From Bacteroidota bacterium (GTDB lineage Bacteria > Bacteroidota > Bacteroidia > Flavobacteriales_D > Sanyastnellaceae), in contig JBDKGG010000002.1 of the NCBI GenBank assembly GCA_039798325.1, positions 4,640 to 68,639 of the forward strand: 64,000 nt of DNA, in the 5' to 3' direction. Shown piece after piece: positions 29,599-64,000 of the stretch (positions within the stretch are counted from its first letter, which is position 1; each line of letters begins with the position of its first letter). The notes under the pieces were generated by a model. It worked only from the letters and a program-made list of their open reading frames with translations. It did no database searches and was not told the DNA's origin. A program made the translations under genes and the position numbers.

Positions 29599-30045
29599 TT
29601 ACAGATTTAACTCATAGGACGTGCAGCGTTCTCCATCAAAATTAATGGTACCCTCCCACCATGTATATCCATCTTCATCGACAACAGAGAAAGAGTAGCC
29701 TTTGGTTTTGTTCGTTCCCAAATCTTTGGTTACTGTGATAGAACTATTTTGGCCACAAGTTGGGGCGCTTGTCCAATACTGAGAAGCCGCATTGGAACCT
29801 ACGAATTGACCATCCACGTAATACTTAAGGGTTGAAGCCAATCCAGTTGTGGAAATGTAAGATGCGCTAGTCTGATTTACCCAAAACACCACCTCACCTG
29901 AATAGGTGCAACAATTGCAATCCTTTTTTGCATCTTCATTGTAATTGGTTGCTTGGGGATTCATGCAACCTTCTTTTTTTGCACAACCCATGTTGGTCAT
30001 TGCTCCGATGGTCAAAGCCATCATCCATAAAATTGTTTTTTTCAT
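29599..30045 (-). CDS. lipoprotein, unknown function
   Basis: 148 aa, MKKTILWMMALTIGAMTNMGC, followed by a Cys-rich CMNPQATNYNEDAKKDCNCC motif and a beta-rich body. Confidence 0.6.
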   Translation of the reverse strand: MKKTILWMMALTIGAMTNMGCAKKEGCMNPQATNYNEDAKKDCNCCTYSGEVVFWVNQTSASYISTTGLASTLKYYVDGQFVGSNAASQYWTSAPTCGQNSSITVTKDLGTNKTKGYSFSVVDEDGYTWWEGTINFDGERCTSYELNL

Positions 30046-30105
30046 ATGATTTTTGTTTTTAGTTATTTCCTATAAATTGAATATGCTTGATCCTGAGCAA
30101 CTCCA

Positions 30106-30747
30106 TTAAATAATCAATGCTAAGAGCACTATCCAAACTACGATATCAATGACACCAACGATAAGGCCGGCTATTGCCATTCCTTTACCTTTCCATCTTG
30201 AAGAGTCCTTGGCTATCTTTCCAAGACCAATCGCACTGAATATTATCCCCAATAATCCGAGAACGACCCCAAATATTAACAACCCTGCTAGACTGCAAAT
30301 AAACCCAGCTAAAGCCAAACCATTGGTTTTTTGATCATCTGGGGGTGACAAGATCACACTCGCGCCATTTTTAAATTCACTGCGAAAAGAATTGATGTCA
30401 TCTGATAGATTAGCAGATTTGTGTGAAGCAGATTCACTTCTATCAATATCCGTTGTAAAAATCTCATTGTTATCAATACTTGCCACTGCCATTGACTGAT
30501 CAACATTTTCCTCAACTTTTGTTTCGTTCTGAGCTACATCCTTTTTCTCATGAATCAATTCATTACTAGAAATATTCAATTCATCTGATGAAACGCTAGA
30601 TGTAGTTTTCAGGTTCTCCTTTTTTGACTTTCCACCAAACCAATCCACATAGTAGCCTTTGGAGTAAACACACTTTTGCATGGTGCAAGAAGAAAGGAAG
30701 GCGGACATCACAATGCCCAATAAAACGAGGTTTTTTGCTGTTTTCAT
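30106..30747 (-). CDS. DUF4190-like membrane protein with lipoprotein-type N-terminus
   Basis: The internal ATG at 30747 gives MKTAKNLVLLGIVMSAFLSSC. The C-terminus has paired TM helices (GLALAGFICSLAGLLIFGVVLGLLGIIFSAIGL...GLIVGVIDIVVWIVLLALII). Confidence 0.68.
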   Translation of the reverse strand: MKTAKNLVLLGIVMSAFLSSCTMQKCVYSKGYYVDWFGGKSKKENLKTTSSVSSDELNISSNELIHEKKDVAQNETKVEENVDQSMAVASIDNNEIFTTDIDRSESASHKSANLSDDINSFRSEFKNGASVILSPPDDQKTNGLALAGFICSLAGLLIFGVVLGLLGIIFSAIGLGKIAKDSSRWKGKGMAIAGLIVGVIDIVVWIVLLALII

Positions 30748-30799
30748 GTTATTTGGTTTAAAGATTTTCTTTGTCCTAAAAGCCAAATATATACAATAT

Positions 30800-30839
30800 T
30801 TTACACTTTACACATTTTTGAGTATGAACAAAGTGTAAA
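30800..30839. promoter_or_regulatory. 10-bp perfect inverted repeat TTTACACTTT-N20-AAAGTGTAAA in a divergent promoter region
   Basis: The arms are at 30800..30809 and 30830..30839. It lies between the divergent DUF4190 gene (start 30747) and the HTH gene (start 30893). Confidence 0.4.
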
Positions 30840-30892
30840 TTATTTCCACAGTTGTGTACTTATGGAAACAAAATATTTCGCTATTTTGACCT

Positions 30893-31216
30893 GTGAAAGT
30901 TCATGTCGGAAAACAGCTAGAAGACGCGGTGCGCGCATCAGAATGGAGCATTACCGCCCTAGCGCAAAAGCTCAAACTTTCCCGAAAAACCATTTACAAC
31001 TACTTTGAAAACCCTGACTTGGACGAGTTTATTGTAAAACGATTTGAGAACGTTTTACACGTCTATATACTCCCAATACAAAATGAAGGGAATCTGGGAA
31101 ATTCATCCGCTGCCAACCATTCAGAAAATCCAGCAGAACACTCCGCCCAGTTTTGGAAAAACAAATACCTGGAATTGCTGGAGAAATACTCGCAACTCTT
31201 GGAGAAAATGGCTTAA
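30893..31216 (+). CDS. helix-turn-helix (XRE-like) DNA-binding protein
   Basis: 107 aa with a GTG start. The HTH segment is WSITALAQKLKLSRKTIYNYF, and the tail is a coiled coil. Confidence 0.6.
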   Translation: MKVHVGKQLEDAVRASEWSITALAQKLKLSRKTIYNYFENPDLDEFIVKRFENVLHVYILPIQNEGNLGNSSAANHSENPAEHSAQFWKNKYLELLEKYSQLLEKMA

Positions 31217-33090
31217 TTCCTCAGGTTACGCGCCTGATGAACTGGAATTCGAATTCCATTTTGATAAGCCACCATAAAAGCATCTGGATATCCCCTCAGC
31301 CTGATTTGACCAAGCGCCAGCTGAGCCTCAGACTCGTTGACAAAACAACCAGCAATATACCGATTCAATTGCCCATCAACATTCTCGATACGTATTGGTC
31401 CAAATTCCCGGTAGAAATCGTTGGGCAATTCTTTCCTGAATGCTCCCACTTGAATACTAAAAACCACACCCTCAGGCATCACTACATTCTTTGGTATAGG
31501 ATTGCGTCGGCTATATTTAAAATCAGCGCTCATTTTAAAAATACTTTGATTTAGATTTTTGGGGAAATCCTCACCAGTCGTTTTCTCAACCATCTCCGTT
31601 GGCTGCTGATTAGATTTAATTGTCTCATCAAAAACTTCCAAGTTCGATGCCGGTGCTGCACTCAATTGATCCATTCTACGATAACATAACGCTGCGCGAT
31701 AAAGAGTAAGCAATTGCTTACGAAAAATCTGTAAATCCTTATCGCTTTGAATACTCATCTTCAACTCGCTTGGTAGGGTTTTCAAATACTCATTCGCTCT
31801 TATTTCCAGATTACGAATCAAAGTGTTTTTGTTGATATCACCATCTTGAGAATAATCCTTAGAAGACAATTTCACCAATATTGTTTGCATGACGTAAATC
31901 AACTGTTTGGCATTTTGTTTTTCCAATTGGGCAAGTTTCTCATCCAATGAATTGTAATCTTTAGCTGTGGAATTGTTACTAAAGTATACCGATAAAAATT
32001 CATTCTCAAAATAATACAATCTCTCAAAATCTACAAAATCAACGAGCCCTTGCATATCCAATCTTTTAATTAAACTGGCAATAGCAAAATCATGATAAAT
32101 GTATAAATCATCAGAAATATCCTGATCAACACCCGTCACCTTGGCTTCATCATTTTCATTTCCATTGATAACATTCGGCGCATTCTCTTCGCCAGGCTCT
32201 TCTTCCTTATTTGCCTTAATATCCACTTTCTTTTCTTCATTCGCCAGTGACACCCTACTTTGCCTTTGCTCTCCAACAACTATGACCTCATTGCTAGTTC
32301 GGTTATTCGACAACGATTCGCTGGCTTTGGAATCTAACTTCTCATTTGTCTTTAAGGAATCACTCGATAAAAATTCAATGTTGGATTCAGCAACCAATTC
32401 TGGCTTCACCAATATTGAATTTGTAAAATTCACATCATTGATTTCAATCTGATTCTGAATTGTATCCAATTTTTCCAATTGCTTTTGATTGGAAGAATCC
32501 ACAGATTGATTAATACCCAAAATCACTTCATCCTGCAACAAATTATCCTCCAACTTTTTCTCTACATCAACATCGACTGAATGGTTATCAATAACAGATA
32601 CATCAACTATTCTCTCAATTCTAAGATCTGAAAATTGTTGATTGTTCGTATAATCCTCACCCATTATCCACCTCAACTTTTGAATATCTAATTCAGAGAT
32701 ATACCCCATTTGATCAATAGAATCAGACCAAGGTTTCTGTCCACAATAGTTTCCTTGAAATCCTTGAATTTTTGAGCGATACCGGGTAAATAAAAATAGA
32801 ACCCGCTTCGATTGAATTTCAAAAATAGGAGAAACCAAAACATCCGTTTCAGGGGAAGAGAGTAGCGCGTTCCAATAAGCCTCTTCTCTCGATTCTTTTG
32901 GCGACTTTCTCCATTCGGAGTTTGACTGAATGATCTGTTTAAAGTCAATACATAAATTGGCTGATGTTGGAAATGTTTCGACGCTCCGATTGGCCATGTA
33001 TACTATTCTTCCTTGAGAAATCTTCGAGGTACATGCAGAAAGGAACCACACCCCAACGAGTATGGCCAATATGTTCCGAATCAGTCTCAA
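31213..33090 (-). CDS. lipoprotein with C-terminal SPOR-like peptidoglycan-binding domain
   Basis: 625 aa with lipobox VWFLSAC. The acidic/Asn-rich middle is low-complexity. The C-terminus VVFSIQVGAFRKELPNDFYREFG...YIAGCFVNESEAQLALGQIRLRGYPDAFMV fits the SPOR pattern. Confidence 0.62.
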   Translation of the reverse strand: MRLIRNILAILVGVWFLSACTSKISQGRIVYMANRSVETFPTSANLCIDFKQIIQSNSEWRKSPKESREEAYWNALLSSPETDVLVSPIFEIQSKRVLFLFTRYRSKIQGFQGNYCGQKPWSDSIDQMGYISELDIQKLRWIMGEDYTNNQQFSDLRIERIVDVSVIDNHSVDVDVEKKLEDNLLQDEVILGINQSVDSSNQKQLEKLDTIQNQIEINDVNFTNSILVKPELVAESNIEFLSSDSLKTNEKLDSKASESLSNNRTSNEVIVVGEQRQSRVSLANEEKKVDIKANKEEEPGEENAPNVINGNENDEAKVTGVDQDISDDLYIYHDFAIASLIKRLDMQGLVDFVDFERLYYFENEFLSVYFSNNSTAKDYNSLDEKLAQLEKQNAKQLIYVMQTILVKLSSKDYSQDGDINKNTLIRNLEIRANEYLKTLPSELKMSIQSDKDLQIFRKQLLTLYRAALCYRRMDQLSAAPASNLEVFDETIKSNQQPTEMVEKTTGEDFPKNLNQSIFKMSADFKYSRRNPIPKNVVMPEGVVFSIQVGAFRKELPNDFYREFGPIRIENVDGQLNRYIAGCFVNESEAQLALGQIRLRGYPDAFMVAYQNGIRIPVHQARNLRN

Positions 33091-33093
33091 GGA

Positions 33094-33597
33094 CTATTTT
33101 TTAAAGAATCCTAGAATGCCCTTACGGACCTTTGGAGCGCTGCCGAATTCGCCTGACGAAGGCGCACTACCAGCCATAACTAAATTATATTTCTCGATAT
33201 TCTCTTTATCAAGTGTTCCCAAATCATTGATAAAAGTTACCTTACTTCTAGGATTTTCATACATTCCGGCAAATCCATATACTGTAGCTTGACTTCGACG
33301 GAAAAAAAACAAAAATCTTGGTTTTGATTCCACTTTATAAATTGGGTCTACTAAAACATCAATGTTATTTTCAGTGATTGCTTTTAAATAGGCATCTCCT
33401 TTTGCCTCGGAGGTAGTCTTCATCCATGACGAATAAGAAGTCACTTTTTTAGAAAAGTCAATTCTCAAATCAGCAACCATGGGAACTGTTTGAATATTGG
33501 AATTACCAACCTCAACCCTTCTTGAGGTGAATTGAAATGTTCCACAAGCTCCAAACATGATGGAGGCAAGAACAAAGAAAAGAATAGATTTTTTCAT
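33094..33597 (-). CDS. lipoprotein, paralogous to the N-terminal domain of 31213..33090
   Basis: 167 aa with lipobox IMFGAC. The segment VPMVADLRIDFSKKV...AKGDAYLKAI...IDVLVDPIYKVESKPRFLFFFRRSQATVYGFAGMY aligns with FPTSANLCIDFKQII...SREEAYWNAL...TDVLVSPIFEIQSKRVLFLFTRYRSKIQGFQGNY. Confidence 0.6.
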   Translation of the reverse strand: MKKSILFFVLASIMFGACGTFQFTSRRVEVGNSNIQTVPMVADLRIDFSKKVTSYSSWMKTTSEAKGDAYLKAITENNIDVLVDPIYKVESKPRFLFFFRRSQATVYGFAGMYENPRSKVTFINDLGTLDKENIEKYNLVMAGSAPSSGEFGSAPKVRKGILGFFKK

Positions 33598-33647
33598 TAT
33601 CCGTATATTTTCACGAATATAAGAAAAACATCTTATGTATATACAAA

Positions 33648-34307
33648 TTATACCGCTCTTTCCTCCTCCTTTCCCAGCAACCTGCGCTGAAAAAGCAACA
33701 AGACTACTATTCCGACACTAATGGCAGAGTCAGCGATGTTGAAAATGGGAGGGAACAATGGCTTGACCTCGCCACCTATGCCCGGAACCCATTCAGGAAA
33801 ATGAATGTACTTGGTCACATGGATCATGTCCACCACATTGCCCATTAACCAAGGTGCATAACCGTCACTGCTCCACTGGGCGATGTCATGGTAAGGAACA
33901 AAATCCTCATAGGCCTCATCATACACCGACCCCTTATCAAATACAACTCCGTAGAAAACGCTGTCCAAGATGTTGCCCAAAGCTCCCGCCAAAATCAAAG
34001 CCATGCAGGCTACCAATCCTACCTTGGCCTTTTGCTTAATCAGTTGTATCAAATACCACATAATTCCAAAGAAAACCAAGATGCGAAACACAGTCAAGAT
34101 CAATTTTCCGCTCTGACCTGGCAACATCCAGCCAAAAGCCATTCCTGGATTCTCAACAAACTGTATGTGCAACCAATTGGGTATTACCTCAACGGCTTCA
34201 CCGTAATGAAAGGTTGTTTTTATATACAACTTCACCCATTGATCCAACAAGATCACGATCCCAAAAATACCGATTGCCCACCAAGCTCTTTTGTCCCAAC
34301 TCCTCAT
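33648..34307 (-). CDS. lspA: lipoprotein signal peptidase II
   Basis: 219 aa, multi-TM, with the motifs GALGNILD and FNIADSAI. Confidence 0.9.
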   Translation of the reverse strand: MRSWDKRAWWAIGIFGIVILLDQWVKLYIKTTFHYGEAVEVIPNWLHIQFVENPGMAFGWMLPGQSGKLILTVFRILVFFGIMWYLIQLIKQKAKVGLVACMALILAGALGNILDSVFYGVVFDKGSVYDEAYEDFVPYHDIAQWSSDGYAPWLMGNVVDMIHVTKYIHFPEWVPGIGGEVKPLFPPIFNIADSAISVGIVVLLLFQRRLLGKEEERAV

Positions 34308-58714: not shown

Positions 58715-59059
58715 ATGAAAAAGATTTTTGCATTCGTCGCCTTCATGATGTTGATGGCAGGTGTGGCTTCTGCTCAAACGCAAAATGCAGCCAATACCAA
58801 TACTGAAAAGAAAGAACAAGTCATCAAAGAGAAAAGCTCTTGCGGTAAAGCAGAGAATGGAAAAGCTTGTTGCTCAAAAGACAAAGGGGTAACCGGTTCT
58901 ACAGACAAGGCTGCTTGCTCAGGTGAGAAGAAAGAAGGCGGTTCTTGCTGCTCCAAAGGGGAGAAAAAAGAAGGTGCTGCTTGTTGCTCTAAAGACCAAA
59001 AGAAAGAAGGCGGAAAGTGTTCTGGAGATGGTAAAAAAGAGGGCAATCCTAAGCCTTAA
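58715..59059 (+). CDS. secreted Lys/Gly/Cys-rich repeat protein (KKEG..CCSK repeats)
   Basis: 114 aa with signal peptide MKKIFAFVAFMMLMAGVASAQ. The mature part has 9 Cys, mostly as CC pairs in the repeats EKKEGGSCCSKG / EKKEGAACCSKD / KKEGGKCSGDG. The gene has its own -7 box and terminator. Confidence 0.65.
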   Translation: MKKIFAFVAFMMLMAGVASAQTQNAANTNTEKKEQVIKEKSSCGKAENGKACCSKDKGVTGSTDKAACSGEKKEGGSCCSKGEKKEGAACCSKDQKKEGGKCSGDGKKEGNPKP

Positions 59060-59080: not shown

Positions 59081-59107
59081 AAAAAGCCGCAAGTTGCGGC
59101 TTTTTTT
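59081..59107. terminator. bidirectional rho-independent terminator
   Basis: AAAAAGCCGCAA-g-TTGCGGCTTTTTTT. The A-run and T-run flank a perfect 7-bp GC-rich stem between convergent transcription units. Confidence 0.8.
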
Positions 59108-59249: not shown

Positions 59250-59939
59250 TTAAAAACCAAAACCAATGTTCAGGTCACGCTGCACTTGTTCAATGGCTGG
59301 ACTTTTTCCTTGACTGTCCAAGTATTTCAAAGCAAACTGGGCAATGTCATTTCGATTCCATTGGTCCATGTTACAATCAAAAATTTGCAACAGCGCTTTA
59401 AGATCCTTCTGCGACAATTTTGCCCTCTTTTCTGCATCGTAAAGAAAAACCGAAATGACCGCTAGGGAGGCAAGAGAGGGTTTGGTCAACAAATCTTTGA
59501 GTGATGGATCGGCATCAATCAAACTCCAAATGGCGGGCAACAAGGAGGTCGATTGATTATTGCTTTGGTATTTCTCGACAGCATTTTTCAAACAAATACG
59601 CAAATCGTGCTCATCCCAAGGCTTGGCCACGTAACGATAAATCTCCCCCTTATTGATGGCATTCACCACGGCTTCAATATCTGCATAACCCGTCACCAAG
59701 ATGCGCACGGATCGAGGGAAATCAGGCAGAATCATTTCAAAAAATTCTACTCCTGAAATGTCAGGCATTTTCTGATCGGACAAAATCACTGGAACCTCAT
59801 GCTGATTGAGATACTCCACTGCTTCTCGTGCAGAGGTAGTGGTAAAAACATCATACTCTCTTCTGAACAATGCCTTGAAAGCTACCAGGTTATTTTCCTC
59901 GTCATCGAGATAGAGGATTTTAATTTTTTCTTCGCTCAT
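59250..59939 (-). CDS. response regulator: receiver domain + unassigned roughly 100-aa C-terminal domain
   Basis: The receiver is ILYLDDEENNLVAF...ILSDQKMPDISG...AKPWD. The C-terminal part has no motif I recognise. ATGA overlap with the kinase gene. Confidence 0.85.
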   Translation of the reverse strand: MSEEKIKILYLDDEENNLVAFKALFRREYDVFTTTSAREAVEYLNQHEVPVILSDQKMPDISGVEFFEMILPDFPRSVRILVTGYADIEAVVNAINKGEIYRYVAKPWDEHDLRICLKNAVEKYQSNNQSTSLLPAIWSLIDADPSLKDLLTKPSLASLAVISVFLYDAEKRAKLSQKDLKALLQIFDCNMDQWNRNDIAQFALKYLDSQGKSPAIEQVQRDLNIGFGF

Positions 59940-62008
59940 AGATCTTTATGATTTGTATTTAAAGGCAATAAAATGGTAAAACTGGTTCCTTTGTTCCATT
60001 CGCTATCAATGCGGATATCACCTCCATGTTCTTGAACAATGCCGAGAACGATGGAGAGACCCAATCCGGTTCCCTCTCCCACTTGTTTGGTCGTAAAGAA
60101 GGGGTCAAAAATCTTTTTACGCACCTCTTCTTTCATTCCTGTTCCATTGTCTTTAATGACAATCTTAACGTTATCATTTTCCTTTGTGGTGGACACATCG
60201 ACCAAGCGTTCTTGAATGGTGCGATTATCCATTTTGGTGGCATGCACGGCGTTGGAAATCAGGTTCATGAGGACTTGATTCAACTTACCGGGGTAGCAAT
60301 GAATTTGGGGCAGAGCCAAATCCAGGTGGGTCGTGAGGGTGACTTCTTTCGAGGTGATGTTTTTCATCACCATCAAAGTTGAAGTGATGCATTCATTGAC
60401 ATCGGCAAGGACCAGGGCGTCTCTGTCCATTCGGGAGAAAACGCGGAGGGACCTCACGATATCAGCGGTTCTTTTGGACCCTTCATCAATTCCTTGGAGG
60501 AGTTGATAGATTTCTTTTTGGAGATAGTCGACGTCCAATTCTTTGTATTTGAGTTGAAGGGCGTTCCATTTGGATTGCAGGTCCGTAACAGGGAGGTTGG
60601 GGTTGATTTCAGCGATGATTTCGATCAACTCATCGACATCGCGTTTAAGGGGTTGAACATTGGAGCGGACAAAGTTGACGGGGTTATTGATTTCATGGGC
60701 TATACCTGCCGTCATTTGCCCGAGGGAGGCCAGTTTCTCAGATTCAACGAGTTGTTTTTGGGTCAACTGCAGGTTGGAGAGGGTTTGTTCTAGGTTATGA
60801 TTGGCGGAAGTGATTTCGCGGGTTCTGGATTCGACTTCTTTTTCCAAAAGGGCATTTTGCTCATGAATCAGGCGTTGATTCTCCTCCATCATCAGGATGG
60901 CTTGAGCTTGTGAGGCTTCCTTCTCTCTTTTGAGGATATTAATCCGATCGGCCAGCGCGAGAGAGAGGAGGATGGCTTCTATAGCGGAACCAATTGGCAT
61001 AGCATAATTCGTGACGGCGTTAAATGGAATCAGTCCTAGATTTCGTAAGGCATACATTGTAACTCCTACTAGAAAGAACATCCAGGCTATCAAATAATAC
61101 TTCGCTGGTCTATATCCACCTTTTATGGCTCTGAGCGCTGCAGGAATCAATATTAACGCACATGCTGCATTAAAATTAATAATGTATTGAGATAATGTAG
61201 CGAAATCAAAAAACAGTAAAACTAATGCGACAAAATATGATGCTAAAAAAATATTCAATAATTTATGAATTGTATTAGAGTAAAGCTTTGTTCTAATAAA
61301 ATCTATTGAAAAAATCACTGTAGCTATACCACTCAAAATAGGTATAAAACTCGACATAAATTGACTAATAGATCCGGAATTTGGCCAAAAATACTTATCG
61401 GCATAGCCACTAATTACAAATTGAGTAAGTAAAACAGTGCCTACATAAAAAACATATCTGAGATAGGTCTTGTCTTTAACTGTCCAATAAATGAATATAT
61501 TGTACAATATCATCACCACCATTATTCCCAAATAAAAAAAATAGAAAGACCTCTTGGTTATTTCAGCCTTTATAAAATCTAAAAAATCATAATGAACCTT
61601 TATTGGAATTATTAATTGTTCATCGCTGCTTGCTTTAAAATAAAATGTCGATTTGCCATCTAAATTTGGTAATTGAAAACTATAACCCGTATTGTCTAAA
61701 AACGAAGGGTATTTTTGACCCCCTTCATAGATTTTTACTCGAAATGTTGAATCCTTGTAAACCACAAATTCATCTAATAGAGAATTATCTATTTGAATGG
61801 TGAACATGCCAACTGACAAATCCAAATTGTTTATTGCAATCTTACCATAACAAGTATCATTACTTATTCCAAGGCTCAATGTGTTCCCATTAAACTTTTT
61901 AAATTCAATATCCGACCTTAAACCCCTGTAATATTCTATACTAATATCTTGACAATGGAATATATGCGACGATAGGATAATAAATAATACAGAAAACAAT
62001 TTTTTCAT
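59936..62008 (-). CDS. 7TMR-DISM-type sensor histidine kinase
   Basis: 690 aa. It has a signal peptide, a roughly 150-aa extracellular beta-rich domain and 7 TM helices ([32 protein letters not shown]). These are followed by a coiled coil, an H-box ([13 protein letters not shown]) and N/G boxes (GTGLGLSIV). Confidence 0.87.
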
Positions 62009-62751
62009 TTTGATAAACTATATTCTATTGTAAGGTTTACTTTATTTCTTGACTCTTCAACAATTTGGTTAGGATTGCTTGACAACGACTGTATTCTTAA
62101 TTTCTCATTCTCATCTGAATTGGCTAGTTCTTGAAGAGCATCTTGAATCGTAATATGTGCATTTTGCTTAGCCCCTTCGTAATAAAGAATTCCATTTTCA
62201 CCTATCCCTTTTACTAAACTGAAACCAAAATTAGAGGCCATTTTAAATGAATGAACTGAGCACAGTGCTAAAATCTGATCAAAACCAAGTCTAGTAGCAA
62301 CAGCTAATGCAGATCTAATACTGTATACACTCCCTATTCCCAAGCCTGCAACCGCAACTGAATTCCATAATCCACAAAGCTCTCCAAATTTCTTTCCTGC
62401 TCTTTGGTTTACATATTCATCTATCTTCGGATCTAAATAAGAAATTGCTGATTGCACTGGGAGAGGTCTTCCCTTGTTAGCCTCTTCGATACGAGCTCCA
62501 CCATAAATTTTCCTGCCATCCTCTGATTCGACAATAACAACATGGACAAATTCAGATGTCATCCAATCCTCCTTAGAGGACGAAACCTGAAAGCCAAAAG
62601 ACCTCAGTACATCAAGATGTCCCTCTTGAAATTTCATACAAGAATCTAGATCATCAATTGCCTTGAATGATCGTATCCGAATAAATTCAACCCTTTCCCT
62701 TGAATTCTCGAGTAATTGCGTTATGTCAACTGATTTGTGACTCAATGTCAA
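62005..62751 (-). CDS. hypothetical protein, GNAT (acyl-CoA N-acyltransferase)-like fold suspected
   Basis: 248 aa. The pattern HVVIVESEDGRKIYGGARIE ... LWNSVAVAGLGIGSVYSIRSALAVATRLGFDQILALCSVHSFKMASNFGF resembles GNAT beta4-(G-x-G)-alpha3-beta5-alpha4. The TTG start overlaps the upstream gene by 26 nt, and the next ATG is at 62637. ATGA overlap with the kinase gene. Confidence 0.45.
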   Translation of the reverse strand: MTLSHKSVDITQLLENSRERVEFIRIRSFKAIDDLDSCMKFQEGHLDVLRSFGFQVSSSKEDWMTSEFVHVVIVESEDGRKIYGGARIEEANKGRPLPVQSAISYLDPKIDEYVNQRAGKKFGELCGLWNSVAVAGLGIGSVYSIRSALAVATRLGFDQILALCSVHSFKMASNFGFSLVKGIGENGILYYEGAKQNAHITIQDALQELANSDENEKLRIQSLSSNPNQIVEESRNKVNLTIEYSLSK

Positions 62752-63802
62752 AATAGATTCGTTGACTTTTTAGCGATTGCCCCAAAAGTATCTTTCTAGC
62801 CGCAGCACATGCAGAACCTCCCCCAATAATTACGTCACTTGCTAATTGTGGCCATGACCTTAATTCAGTGCCTACTTTTGACATTGATAAACGTCCTCTC
62901 TCTGAAACCTTTGAAAAGTCTATACACCGCATTAATACATCACGACTCGTCAAGATATTTCTGTCAATACCTTCCAACATTCCATGTAATAATGGGTAAT
63001 TAGGATCCAAATCATATCTTTCAATATCCAGAACACTCCTATCGCTTGTTTCCATAACAACCGGTACTGACTTTTCTCTGGCTTGCTCACGAATCAATAA
63101 TTTAATAAAACCATTATCGCATTCATCTATTACCAAATCCAACTTTCCTTTTTCGTTATCGAAGAAATAATCAATATTATCACCCGAGACTCCATCATTA
63201 AAAATCTCTACTTTCAAATATGGATCTAGCTCTAAGACTTTACGTTTCGCTATTACAGCCTTATTACTTTCCAAATCGAAAATGGAATGAAATATCCTGT
63301 TCAGATTACTCAAATCCAATGTGTCAAAGTCTGCTATACGAATAGTGCCCGCAATTCTCTCTAATGCAATTGACATCAAGACAGAATATCCGACGGACAA
63401 ACCAACAATACCAATCGTTTTATTCAACAAACTATTTTGCTCTTCTTCGGTAATTTTATCCCTATTTCTGATTGTCCTTAAAAAAACAAAATCCTCTTCG
63501 TCCAAAATTCTAACAAGGTTTTTTCTCCAAGGATAATAAATCCAAACACCATTGACTCTCGTAACTTTCTCACTCAACAACTCGTTTCTTTTCCTAGAAA
63601 AATCTAAAGAAAATCTATCACTCAAATTAGGGAACTTATTCAAGGTTAACTCATCTAACATTCCATCTAATAAATCTACTTTCAGAATATCATTTGAGTT
63701 GAATAGACTCAGGAATTGATCAGAATCGTGGTGATAAAAAAGTACAACATTCTCTTCCATACGTAATAACTCAAATATCCAATATTCAAGTTCTATTTTC
63801 AT
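62726..63802 (-). CDS. E1/ThiF-like adenylyltransferase-fold protein (resembles the ThiF half of Rv1355c/MoeY-type proteins) with a roughly 125-aa N-terminal extension
   Basis: 358 aa. The nucleotide-binding region is KTIGIVGLSVGYSVLMSIAL...IRIADFDTLDLSNLNRI (DxDxxxxSNLNR). No CxxC zinc pairs are present. The gene is AT-rich. Confidence 0.65.
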   Translation of the reverse strand: MKIELEYWIFELLRMEENVVLFYHHDSDQFLSLFNSNDILKVDLLDGMLDELTLNKFPNLSDRFSLDFSRKRNELLSEKVTRVNGVWIYYPWRKNLVRILDEEDFVFLRTIRNRDKITEEEQNSLLNKTIGIVGLSVGYSVLMSIALERIAGTIRIADFDTLDLSNLNRIFHSIFDLESNKAVIAKRKVLELDPYLKVEIFNDGVSGDNIDYFFDNEKGKLDLVIDECDNGFIKLLIREQAREKSVPVVMETSDRSVLDIERYDLDPNYPLLHGMLEGIDRNILTSRDVLMRCIDFSKVSERGRLSMSKVGTELRSWPQLASDVIIGGGSACAAARKILLGQSLKSQRIYFDIESQIS

Positions 63803-63864
63803 ATGAATGTTTTTTGTATTTTAACAGCGTAAAGTTGAAACCTTAATTAAAACCCATCCCACCA

Positions 63865-64000
63865 ATGGAAAAATTAACTGACTCCAAAAACGGAGCTCTT
63901 TCGTTTCCTTCATGGAAACAAGTCATTTCAGAATTGCTAATTTTTGAAAGTAAATTCTCTCCTCACCTTACAATGCCTGTTGGCCAATTCTTGGGTCAAT
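63865..64000 (+). CDS. hypothetical protein, 5' fragment (runs off window)
   Basis: An open frame from the ATG at 63865 reads MEKLTDSKNGALSFPSWKQVISELLIFESKFSPHLTMPVGQFLGQ. It is divergent from the E1-like operon. No motif was recognised. Confidence 0.3.
   Translation, partial: MEKLTDSKNGALSFPSWKQVISELLIFESKFSPHLTMPVGQFLGQ

Follow-up and report, generated by a model that had tools for sequence, protein, structure and literature searches.

A ThiF-like enzyme and a FeeM-fold protein coupled to a 7TMR-DISM sensor kinase in an operon conserved across Bacteroidota

The first N-acyl oxazolones were described as recently as 2020-2021; how Mycobacterium tuberculosis makes such compounds was worked out in 2023-2025. 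In this study we describe a four-gene operon (g1 to g4) in which an enzyme pair resembling these pathways is linked to a two-component system. The operon occupies positions 59250-63802 on the minus strand of a 64,000-nucleotide (nt) stretch of a Bacteroidota genome (assembly GCA_039798325.1, contig JBDKGG010000002.1, positions 4,640 to 68,639), which as a whole is referred to below as the window.

The closest described system is TrzA/TrzS of M. tuberculosis, M. smegmatis and Rhodococcus jostii, where TrzA (Rv1356c) makes N-acyl-tryptophan and TrzS (Rv1355c) turns it into N-acyl tryptazolones (PMC12856293). TrzS carries out an ATP-dependent cyclisation first and an O2-dependent desaturation second, and with the oxidase disabled the reaction still yields the cyclised intermediate in its saturated form (PMC12856293). 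A like logic is followed by OxzAB of Pseudoalteromonas rubra and TyzACB of M. tuberculosis, in the latter of which TyzB is a stand-alone ThiF protein (bioRxiv 10.1101/2020.06.11.147165; PMC10404671). The acyltransferases of these oxazolone pathways are themselves very divergent; the structures reported as closest to TyzA are FeeM (2G0B) and BjaI (5W8C) (bioRxiv 10.1101/2020.06.11.147165; PMC10404671). According to the oxazolone papers the role of these compounds is a major unresolved question, and signalling has been proposed on the grounds that they are labile, that they resemble N-acyl homoserine lactones (AHLs) and that trzAS adjoins cyclic di-GMP genes.

The operon and its predicted enzyme pair

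The four genes of the operon are as follows.

62726-63802, minus strand: g1, 358 aa, ThiF-like enzyme, predicted ATP-dependent adenylating enzyme/cyclase
62005-62751, minus strand: g2, 248 aa with a TTG start, GNAT-fold protein, predicted N-acyl amino acid synthase
59936-62008, minus strand: g3, 690 aa, 7TMR-DISM sensor histidine kinase
59250-59939, minus strand: g4, 229 aa, receiver protein with a tail of about 100 aa

An earlier note, made from the sequence alone, had described these as four minus-strand open reading frames (ORFs) chained by one 26-nt overlap and two ATGA overlaps. Re-reading the sequence gave the same picture, with the 26-nt overlap joining g1 and g2 (62726-62751) and the ATGA overlaps lying at 62005-62008 (g2/g3) and 59936-59939 (g3/g4). 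For g2 only TTG 62751 or TTG 62745 is a plausible start codon, both within the 3' end of g1, and the NCBI gene call for a protein identical to g2 is likewise 248 aa long.

The assignment of g1 as an E1/ThiF-type protein was borne out by domain, residue and structure comparisons. Pfam ThiF covers residues 115-249 with 69 bits, and all residues that are invariant in the family are present (G131/G134/S136/G138, D158, D160, N166, N168, R169, K181, C228 and D229), forming the conserved motifs GxxGLSVG, ADFD, NLNR, K181 and C228-D229; the translation contains no CxxC motif, as had been noted. Against NCBIfam, g1 matches NF005901, the 'Rv1355c family', with an E-value of 7.4e-112 and 375 bits, while the second-best family reaches about 1e-15 to 4.6e-15. 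The match spans model positions 22-339 of 722, so that g1 corresponds to the first (ThiF) half of the model, and the C-terminal half, the flavin-dependent oxidase domain (FDO), is missing. Alignment with full-length homologues shows that g1 stops at the end of the ThiF domain. The earlier note had treated the N-terminal extension as an orphan region. This did not hold, as the N-terminal region of about 115 aa is covered by the Rv1355c/TrzS model and is conserved in the aligned full-length homologues, with a motif (WxYYPW…LRTxRNRxKIT) common to short forms, long forms and a Brevibacillus homologue. Homology places g1 in the TrzS-type ThiF clade, though it lies below the equivalog cutoff of the family; this cutoff is passed by the short Brevibacillus homologue (511 bits) and by an Algoriphagus ThiF-FDO fusion (738 bits).

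The AlphaFold2 model of g1 (mean predicted local distance difference test, pLDDT, 91.4) has an E1/ThiF fold, with AclA, ThiF, MoeB, PaaA, UBA5, TcdA and MccB as its top Foldseek matches. The best solved structure is AclA of Tenacibaculum discolor with substrate (9egb/9egc, released 2025), a 250-aa ThiF-type enzyme likewise from a member of the Bacteroidota; a literature search on the function of AclA returned nothing. MccB and PaaA superpose poorly on the g1 model, with a root-mean-square deviation of 11-16 Å. When the operon was searched with PADLOC, only marginal matches to the E1 core were obtained (E>=0.001), and the reading of the locus as a defence system was dropped.

Two short E1 genes of this family were observed outside the Bacteroidota. 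In Brevibacillus (L090, 5115-7128) a stand-alone short Rv1355c-family E1 follows an unannotated 283-aa gene, with a PAS histidine kinase 2 kb upstream, and short E1s without FDO hence also exist beyond the phylum. The 283-aa gene was considered as a bridge to g2 and discarded, as it showed no significant relation to the g2 profile (hhalign E 0.06). In Naegleria lovaniensis (PYSW02000021.1; L093, 6001-7317) a short Rv1355c-like E1 that is 41-44% identical to g1 lies in a eukaryotic contig of 663 kb, surrounded by genes of eukaryote type (PIP5K, Zn2Cys6 factor), which suggests horizontal transfer into the amoeboflagellate. The DNA of this locus does not translate straight into the protein, so that the gene may contain introns, and no g2 or FDO homologue was found near it.

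The second enzyme, g2, was without a match in Pfam, NCBIfam, PADLOC or PDB sequences, whether the single protein or a profile of its family was used (PDB matches were at chance level only). Its GNAT-like nature, which the earlier note had read from a short sequence pattern, was recovered at the level of structure. The AlphaFold2 model (pLDDT 88.1, predicted template modelling score 0.87) has a GNAT fold, and its best Foldseek match is FeeM (2g0b; E 8e-8, TMt 0.75-0.80), followed by the AHL synthases TofI, MesI, BjaI, EsaI, LasI and RpaI, with BjaI in tenth rank. At E<=0.001 there were 124 PDB structural matches, and all 50 of those listed are GNAT-fold enzymes. The elements of the GNAT cofactor site are present as a strand (122-130), an AGLGIGS loop and a helix (142-154). 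FeeM and the LuxI-type synthases share with g2 the central strand bearing an invariant Glu, the Gly-rich loop and the helix. Particular to the g2 family are the invariant central-strand motif E124-x-C126-G-L-W-N-S131, which is followed by a loop A-G-x-G138-I-G140 before the helix, and an extra C-terminal helix and beta-hairpin at residues ~214-245. The resemblance to LuxI-type AHL synthases is in fold only and ranks below that to FeeM. Among 44 family members that were scanned, none matched Pfam Autoind_synth or a FeeM-type family at E<=1, and Acetyltransf_1 gave weak matches in six (best E 0.0011).

An exhaustive profile search of 1.84e9 representatives placed the g2 family in 599 clusters at 50% identity; it forms a sequence family of FeeM-like acyltransferases without a Pfam or NCBIfam model. 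The same profile search returned apparent g2-domain fusions (P0383, P0316, P0256, P0266 and P0257), the types being ThiF-G2 (632 aa), G2-7TMR-DISM kinase (897 aa), TIR-x-G2 (570 aa), LRR-G2 (662 aa) and tandem G2. None is more than a singleton (one or two contigs each), and frame or assembly errors may explain them, given the ATGA overlaps.

When the locus is set beside trzAS, g1 is a clear homologue of the cyclase half of TrzS, N-terminal domain included, and sister loci in Bacteroidota bear the full ThiF-FDO fusion above the Rv1355c cutoff. In both systems the E1 adjoins an acyltransferase-type gene of ~230-280 aa in a putative operon, and signalling genes are adjacent, these being cyclic di-GMP genes in M. 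tuberculosis and a two-component system here. Unlike trzAS, FDO is missing in the window's lineage and in 43 of the 64 surveyed loci that carry an E1, and the acyltransferase g2 has no detectable sequence similarity to the named families. Furthermore, g2 lies downstream of the E1, whereas a tyzA homologue lies upstream of trzS in actinobacterial operons (PMC12856293). Finally, the pair described here is coupled to a 7TMR-DISM kinase and its hosts are Bacteroidota, not Actinomycetota.

OxzAB and TyzACB (Rv2336-2338c in M. tuberculosis), whose products are tyrazolone/phenazolone, likewise combine an N-acyltransferase resembling FeeM and AHL synthases with a ThiF-type, ATP-dependent cyclisation; TyzB stands alone as g1 does, and TyzA and g2 have FeeM 2G0B and BjaI as structural matches in common. 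They differ in that they always come with an oxidase of the nitroreductase superfamily, either fused (OxzB) or adjacent (TyzC), and no linkage to a histidine kinase has been described for them. Their ThiF proteins also belong to a subcluster other than that of TrzS in a sequence similarity network (PMC12856293).

Since g1 falls in the Rv1355c/TrzS family and g2 has a FeeM-like fold, we read the two together as a homologue or analogue of the pathways from N-acyl amino acids to oxazolones. Most probably g1 is a ThiF-like cyclase and g2 an N-acyl amino acid synthase, with a saturated product that does not pass through an FDO step. g2 is predicted to take the role of TrzA, TyzA and OxzA, with which it was compared at the fold level only. 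It would move an acyl chain from acyl-CoA or acyl-acyl carrier protein onto the amino group of an amino acid, and g1 would then use ATP to adenylate the carboxylate left free on this N-acyl amino acid and close a 5(4H)-oxazolone ring. Because no FDO is fused or located nearby in the window's lineage, the product is expected to stay saturated, and would be either an oxazolone of higher reactivity or simply the N-acyl amino acid instead of a desaturated compound of the tyrazolone/tryptazolone type.

Several points weigh against this reading. g1 reaches 375 bits where the NF005901 equivalog cutoff is 476 bits, and g2 is without detectable sequence homology to any named acyltransferase. The defining oxidase of the oxazolone pathways is missing from the 64-kb window and from a further contig sequence, L007, that spans the window end, as determined by tblastn with the Algoriphagus FDO half; accordingly the end product may not be an oxazolone natural product of a known type. 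The Brevibacillus gene in the acyltransferase position is not detectably related to g2 (hhalign E 0.06), and the G2-kinase and ThiF-G2 fusions are possibly assembly errors and were not used as evidence. The enzyme chemistry proposed for both proteins is a prediction from homology and fold.

Conservation of the module across Bacteroidota

The g2 family is present in at least 497 species-representative genomes, and among the matches listed it appears to be confined to Bacteroidota (Flavobacteriales, Cytophagales, Chitinophagales and Sphingobacteriales). Two contigs binned as Comamonadaceae (L025) and Beijerinckiaceae (L074) carry a typical Bacteroidota module and are probably mis-binned contigs in metagenome-assembled genomes (MAGs). 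In order to survey gene content, 80 species-representative loci were compared by BLAST with the window proteins and with reference domains; four of these are truncated at a 5' contig edge, leaving 76 loci with enough contig.

A 7TMR-DISM kinase lies downstream of g2 on the same strand in every one of these 76 loci. An E1 is present in 64 of the 80 loci, 43 of them short like g1 and 21 with a ThiF-FDO fusion. The E1 adjoins g2 in these 64 loci, which answers the neighbourhood check of the g1/g2 pair that the earlier note had proposed. In six loci an S-adenosylmethionine (SAM) methyltransferase is found between g2 and the kinase and there is no E1, and six others have neither E1 nor methyltransferase, such that g2 occurs without any E1 in 12 of the 76 loci. 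The gene order is E1, g2, kinase, or g2, E1, kinase in Sphingobacteriales, and the median junctions are -4 nt for E1 to g2, -4 nt for g2 to kinase and +8 nt for kinase to receiver (REC), as measured from the first start codon of the longest ORF, which may somewhat overestimate the overlaps. Most loci continue with a REC-HisKA-HATPase protein, often with a REC protein of ~133 aa, and with a REC protein of ~154 aa on the opposite strand. A reciprocal search that started from E1 homologues recovered the module in Cyclobacterium and Negadavirga.

Recurrence of the same gene order across the 80 species-representative loci places the four-gene arrangement far beyond chance, and together with the overlaps and the median junctions of -4 nt it supports the earlier reading of a single, tightly coupled operon. 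Comparative genomics shows that acyltransferase, kinase and receiver are co-transcribed and translationally coupled across Bacteroidota. Unbiased clustering of ORFs >=90 aa within ±8 kb in the 80 loci, which is the scope of all statements on conserved neighbours below, brought out no further widely conserved gene beyond the module, and among the conserved neighbours there was no transporter, ubiquitin-like protein (Ubl), E2, JAB protein or second enzyme. For the precursor peptides, transporters and Ubl/JAB partners that the earlier note had proposed to look for beyond position 64000, the survey brought up no conserved candidate.

On the g2 tree the accessory-enzyme states are interspersed while the g2-kinase pair is constant. 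FDO has probably been lost repeatedly across this tree, and the E1 appears to have been replaced or lost several times. Because E1 and methyltransferase alternate and g2 persists without E1, the distribution suggests that the two enzymes are alternative ways of tailoring the free carboxylate on the g2 product. An oxidase step that is dispensable in most lineages, and exchangeable for a methyltransferase, predicts saturated oxazolones and N-acyl amino acid methyl esters as products.

The earlier note knew of no described counterpart. For the E1/GNAT pair this does not stand, and we dropped the view of the pair as an undescribed combination, because the pairing is the published logic of the oxazolone pathways OxzAB, TyzACB and TrzAS. 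For the four-gene architecture as a whole it seems to stand, as no mention was found in the literature searched. In the literature on oxazolone pathways, where searched, histidine kinases and two-component systems are not mentioned and Bacteroidota occur only in reference lists. A full-text literature search for 7TMR-DISM proteins together with ThiF or N-acyl enzymes, and for oxazolones together with histidine kinases and ThiF, gave nothing relevant; its coverage was incomplete, and an earlier description elsewhere is possible. An enzyme pair hard-wired to a 7TMR-DISM two-component system appears to be new as a whole architecture.

The two-component system and the direction of coupling

In agreement with the earlier note, g3 is a 7TMR-DISM sensor kinase and g4 a receiver protein. 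The domains of g3, all four of which score above the Pfam gathering cutoffs, are listed below.

61595-61924, minus strand: DISMED2 domain of g3 (aa 29-138), Pfam 7TMR-DISMED2, 35.8 bits
60944-61549, minus strand: 7TM bundle of g3 (aa 154-355), Pfam 7TMR-DISM_7TM, 157 bits
59957-60724, minus strand: HisKA (H438) and HATPase of g3 (aa 429-684), HisKA 27.4 bits and HATPase_c 91 bits

RetS and LadS of Pseudomonas are 7TMR-DISM sensor kinases with a DISMED2 domain, a 7TM bundle and a kinase core. g3 has the same three parts but, unlike RetS and LadS, is a plain HisKA-HATPase kinase with neither receiver nor Hpt domains fused to it. We know of no 7TMR-DISM protein that has been described with a genetic tie to a lipid-biosynthesis pair. 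Across 70 g3 orthologues His438 of the H-box, the N-box and the G-boxes are at least 90% conserved, and the mean pairwise identity is 25% in DISMED2, 41% in the 7TM region and 58% in the juxtamembrane linker. DISMED2 contains one column that is conserved at >=90%, compared with 23 in the 7TM bundle.

In g4 a Response_reg domain covers aa 8-114 (Pfam, 63 bits) with canonical residues D12/D13, D55, T83 and K105. The tail of about 100 aa is helical by inspection and contains no His. It gave no family match in Pfam or NCBIfam, in agreement with the earlier note, and only five fragmentary homologues were found among 5.8e9 proteins, limited to a narrow clade. The g4 REC shares 72-75% identity with its counterpart in the REC-HisKA-HATPase protein that occupies the equivalent position in the sister clade and <=57% with the small single-domain RECs, which indicates that g4 descends from the REC-kinase protein and has lost the kinase part. 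An origin from the small 154-aa REC protein, which tblastn had suggested, was rejected on this evidence, the sister-clade REC being clearly closer. The tail was also considered as a relic of HisKA dimerisation; this was given up, since the tail lacks a His and cannot be aligned reliably with the HisKA region.

What does this two-component system have to do with the lipid? The earlier note had offered a small-molecule make-and-sense module as one reading, and this is still the leading one, with the direction of coupling not settled. We tentatively favour, at somewhat less than even odds, a loop whose lipid product serves as the cognate signal for the co-translated kinase. The lipid would partition into the membrane and be detected by the conserved 7TM bundle, after which the kinase would phosphorylate its receivers, namely g4 here and the REC-HisKA-HATPase protein and small RECs elsewhere. 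The output would probably include the operon itself and a divergent unit next to it that encodes a helix-turn-helix (HTH) protein (see below), giving a self-contained loop with a layout analogous to agrBDCA or comQXPA. In those systems, too, signal-making genes, a membrane histidine kinase and a receiver form one operon, without homology to the genes described here. The proposed signal here is a lipid, not a peptide, the receivers lack DNA-binding domains, and autoinduction is a prediction here. In its most specific form the proposal is a lipid autoinducer circuit in which the oxazolone, or its methyl-ester or free-acid variants elsewhere, is the ligand of the 7TMR-DISM kinase; we consider this version possible and rather doubtful.

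The loop is favoured by the constant pairing of g2 and kinase, by the upstream, overlapping position of the biosynthetic genes and by the conservation of the 7TM bundle and linker. A constant g2-kinase pair with biosynthetic genes upstream and overlapping would be unusual for a mere regulon target. In addition, a 7TM bundle and linker conserved over DISMED2, with no transporter, precursor or other enzyme kept nearby, hints at membrane sensing of a lipid. On the other side, the argument from domain conservation is weak because periplasmic domains usually evolve fastest; gene linkage carries no direction, such that a kinase that senses another cue and has the lipid as its output also fits; and the receiver proteins of the module have no DNA-binding output domain.

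The arrangement with the lipid as output is the main rival, which we regard as a possible though somewhat unlikely account. Here the enzymology is unchanged and the kinase senses an unrelated external or envelope cue, for example via DISMED2, with the lipid as an effector (an antimicrobial, surfactant, membrane-remodelling or stress lipid) whose synthesis simply shares the expression of the two-component system and is autoregulated by it. In favour of this, DISMED2, a genuine extracellular sensor domain, is kept in all orthologues, and linkage alone gives no direction. Proteobacteria make oxazolones under antibiotic induction, the tyz genes are tied to oxidative-stress phenotypes, and the related N-acyl tyrosines are antimicrobial. 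However, genes for effector biosynthesis are usually regulon targets and seldom coupled upstream of a sensor throughout a phylum, no exporter or resistance gene is conserved among the neighbours, and the periplasmic domain varies more than any other part of the kinase.

It is improbable that no free lipid is made and that g2, with or without the E1, instead acylates or otherwise modifies the kinase or receiver, or that the E1 activates a protein C-terminus. The coupling of g2 and kinase is certainly tight (an ATGA overlap here and a median junction of -4 nt), one metagenomic G2-kinase fusion (P0316) was found, and a saturated oxazolone or acyl-adenylate would be a reactive acyl donor. However, the closest folds to g2 are small-molecule N-acyl synthases and not protein acetyltransferases, the biochemically characterised activity in the g1 family is that of a small-molecule cyclase, and the conserved neighbours include no Ubl, E2 or JAB partner; the fusion P0316 is a singleton, seen on one contig, and could have arisen from a 1-nt error at the ATGA overlap.

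The second reading of the earlier note, a ribosomally synthesised and post-translationally modified peptide (RiPP) or adenylated peptide of the MccB/PaaA type with the GNAT protein as immunity or tailoring enzyme, can be set aside as very improbable: although MccB and PaaA are among the structural matches of g1 and also carry an N-terminal domain ahead of the ThiF core, their alignments are the poor ones given above (11-16 Å), the N-terminal domain of g1 is part of the Rv1355c/TrzS model and the substrates of TrzS are N-acyl amino acids, the overlapping genes leave no space for a precursor gene, the surveyed ORFs bring up no recurrent gene from outside the module (ORFs shorter than 90 aa fall outside the survey), no partner is conserved, g2 occurs without E1 in 12 of 76 loci, and there is no PADLOC or immunity-type match.

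Returning to the make-and-sense loop, the tie between a homologous enzyme pair and a sensor kinase, which recurs in at least 497 species of Bacteroidota, some of them cultured, provides a candidate receptor named by gene position and points to N-acyl-amino-acid/oxazolone lipids acting in signalling. It also suggests a candidate ligand class for 7TMR-DISM receptors. If the autoinducer reading is true, oxazolone lipids would gain a first physiological role, the 7TMR-DISM class a lipid ligand defined by its own operon, and Bacteroidota a widespread cell-cell or self-signalling system of their own. If the linkage reflects mere co-regulation of a stress lipid, the result would be more modest and would still supply a regulator of the pathway.

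The window's own clade and neighbouring features

In a group of freshwater Flavobacteriales MAGs to which the window belongs, the module is modified in that the E1 is short and the REC-HisKA-HATPase protein is reduced to g4. A divergent unit of three genes (D368, then an XRE-type HTH gene, then a gene for a small degenerate REC) lies 62 nt from g1. Its full extent is seen in L007 (1516-3811), which is identical to the window over g1 and the sensor half of g3. The remaining features around the operon are as follows.

63803-63864: divergent intergenic region, 62 nt from the g1 ATG to the D368 start (ORF coordinates)
63865-64000, plus strand: first 45 codons of D368, which runs off the window end
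59081-59107, minus strand: intrinsic terminator hairpin (A-run, GCCGC-loop-GCGGC, T-run), bidirectional-looking

D368 encodes a soluble protein of 368 aa, the first 45 aa of which lie in the window (tblastn, 100% over 45 aa). It has no match in Pfam, NCBIfam or PDB sequences, and the idea that it might be the split-off oxidase half of Rv1355c was abandoned for this reason. The HTH gene matches Pfam HTH_3, and its product is the sole DNA-binding candidate close to the operon. The divergent unit is kept together with the operon in 11 loci, all in the window's clade.

The spacer between g1 and D368 presumably holds the promoters of both the g1 operon and D368. A sigma-70 scan returned fewer promoter-like matches than in shuffled sequence and identified no promoter, the consensus being ill-suited to Bacteroidota. 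The closest relatives of g1 are 344 aa long and the first 20 residues of the g1 model have low pLDDT; g1 may alternatively start at Met15 (63760), in which case the divergent spacer would be 104 nt.

A change in base composition runs through the operon. GC content at third codon positions (GC3) is 0.31 in g1, 0.27 in g2 and 0.29 in codons 1-360 of g3, and rises to 0.53 in the kinase half of g3 and 0.46 in g4, with the switch located inside g3 near 60930. Across the window's clade the E1, g2 and the kinase's sensor half have a GC3 of 0.25-0.33, compared with 0.40-0.53 in the catalytic half and g4. The switch is common to L010, L012, L013 and L015-L019 and is missing family-wide (mean difference 0.003, standard deviation 0.07), and it persists across species with saturated third positions. 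In com and agr systems, pherotype cassettes break at the boundary between the sensor and catalytic parts of the kinase. The compositional break within the kinase gene here hints at exchangeable synthase-plus-sensor cassettes. In a comparison aimed at pherotype-like recombination, identity to the closest relatives climbs gradually from g1 to g4 and, with near-saturated third positions, no breakpoint is callable. The segment 62001-64000 is the lowest-GC 2 kb of the window, and a second low-GC stretch was seen at 30001-34000 (0.38, compared with a window mean of 0.44).

At the other end of the operon, the terminator hairpin is situated ~150 nt past g4 and also closes a convergent gene at 58715-59059. 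It was missed by a signal scan, read from the sequence and then tested by folding against 200 shuffled sequences, in which it gave -14.6 kcal/mol (z = -3.83), with 0 of the 200 shuffles equal. Between the g4 stop and this terminator is a full-length Flavo-1 RNA motif (Rfam RF01705; 59134-59211, minus strand) that scores 45 bits compared with a gathering score of 42 (E 2e-6). A similarly placed motif is found in the closest relative, L010 (9267-9344), and in none of 12 other loci scanned, which makes it lineage-specific and places it outside the conserved module. The convergent gene on the plus strand (58715-59059) has no Pfam match and encodes a 114-aa secreted protein with a signal peptide (MKKIFAFVAFMMLMAGVASA); the product is Lys-, Cys- and Gly-rich and contains repeated CCSK and EKKEGG motifs.

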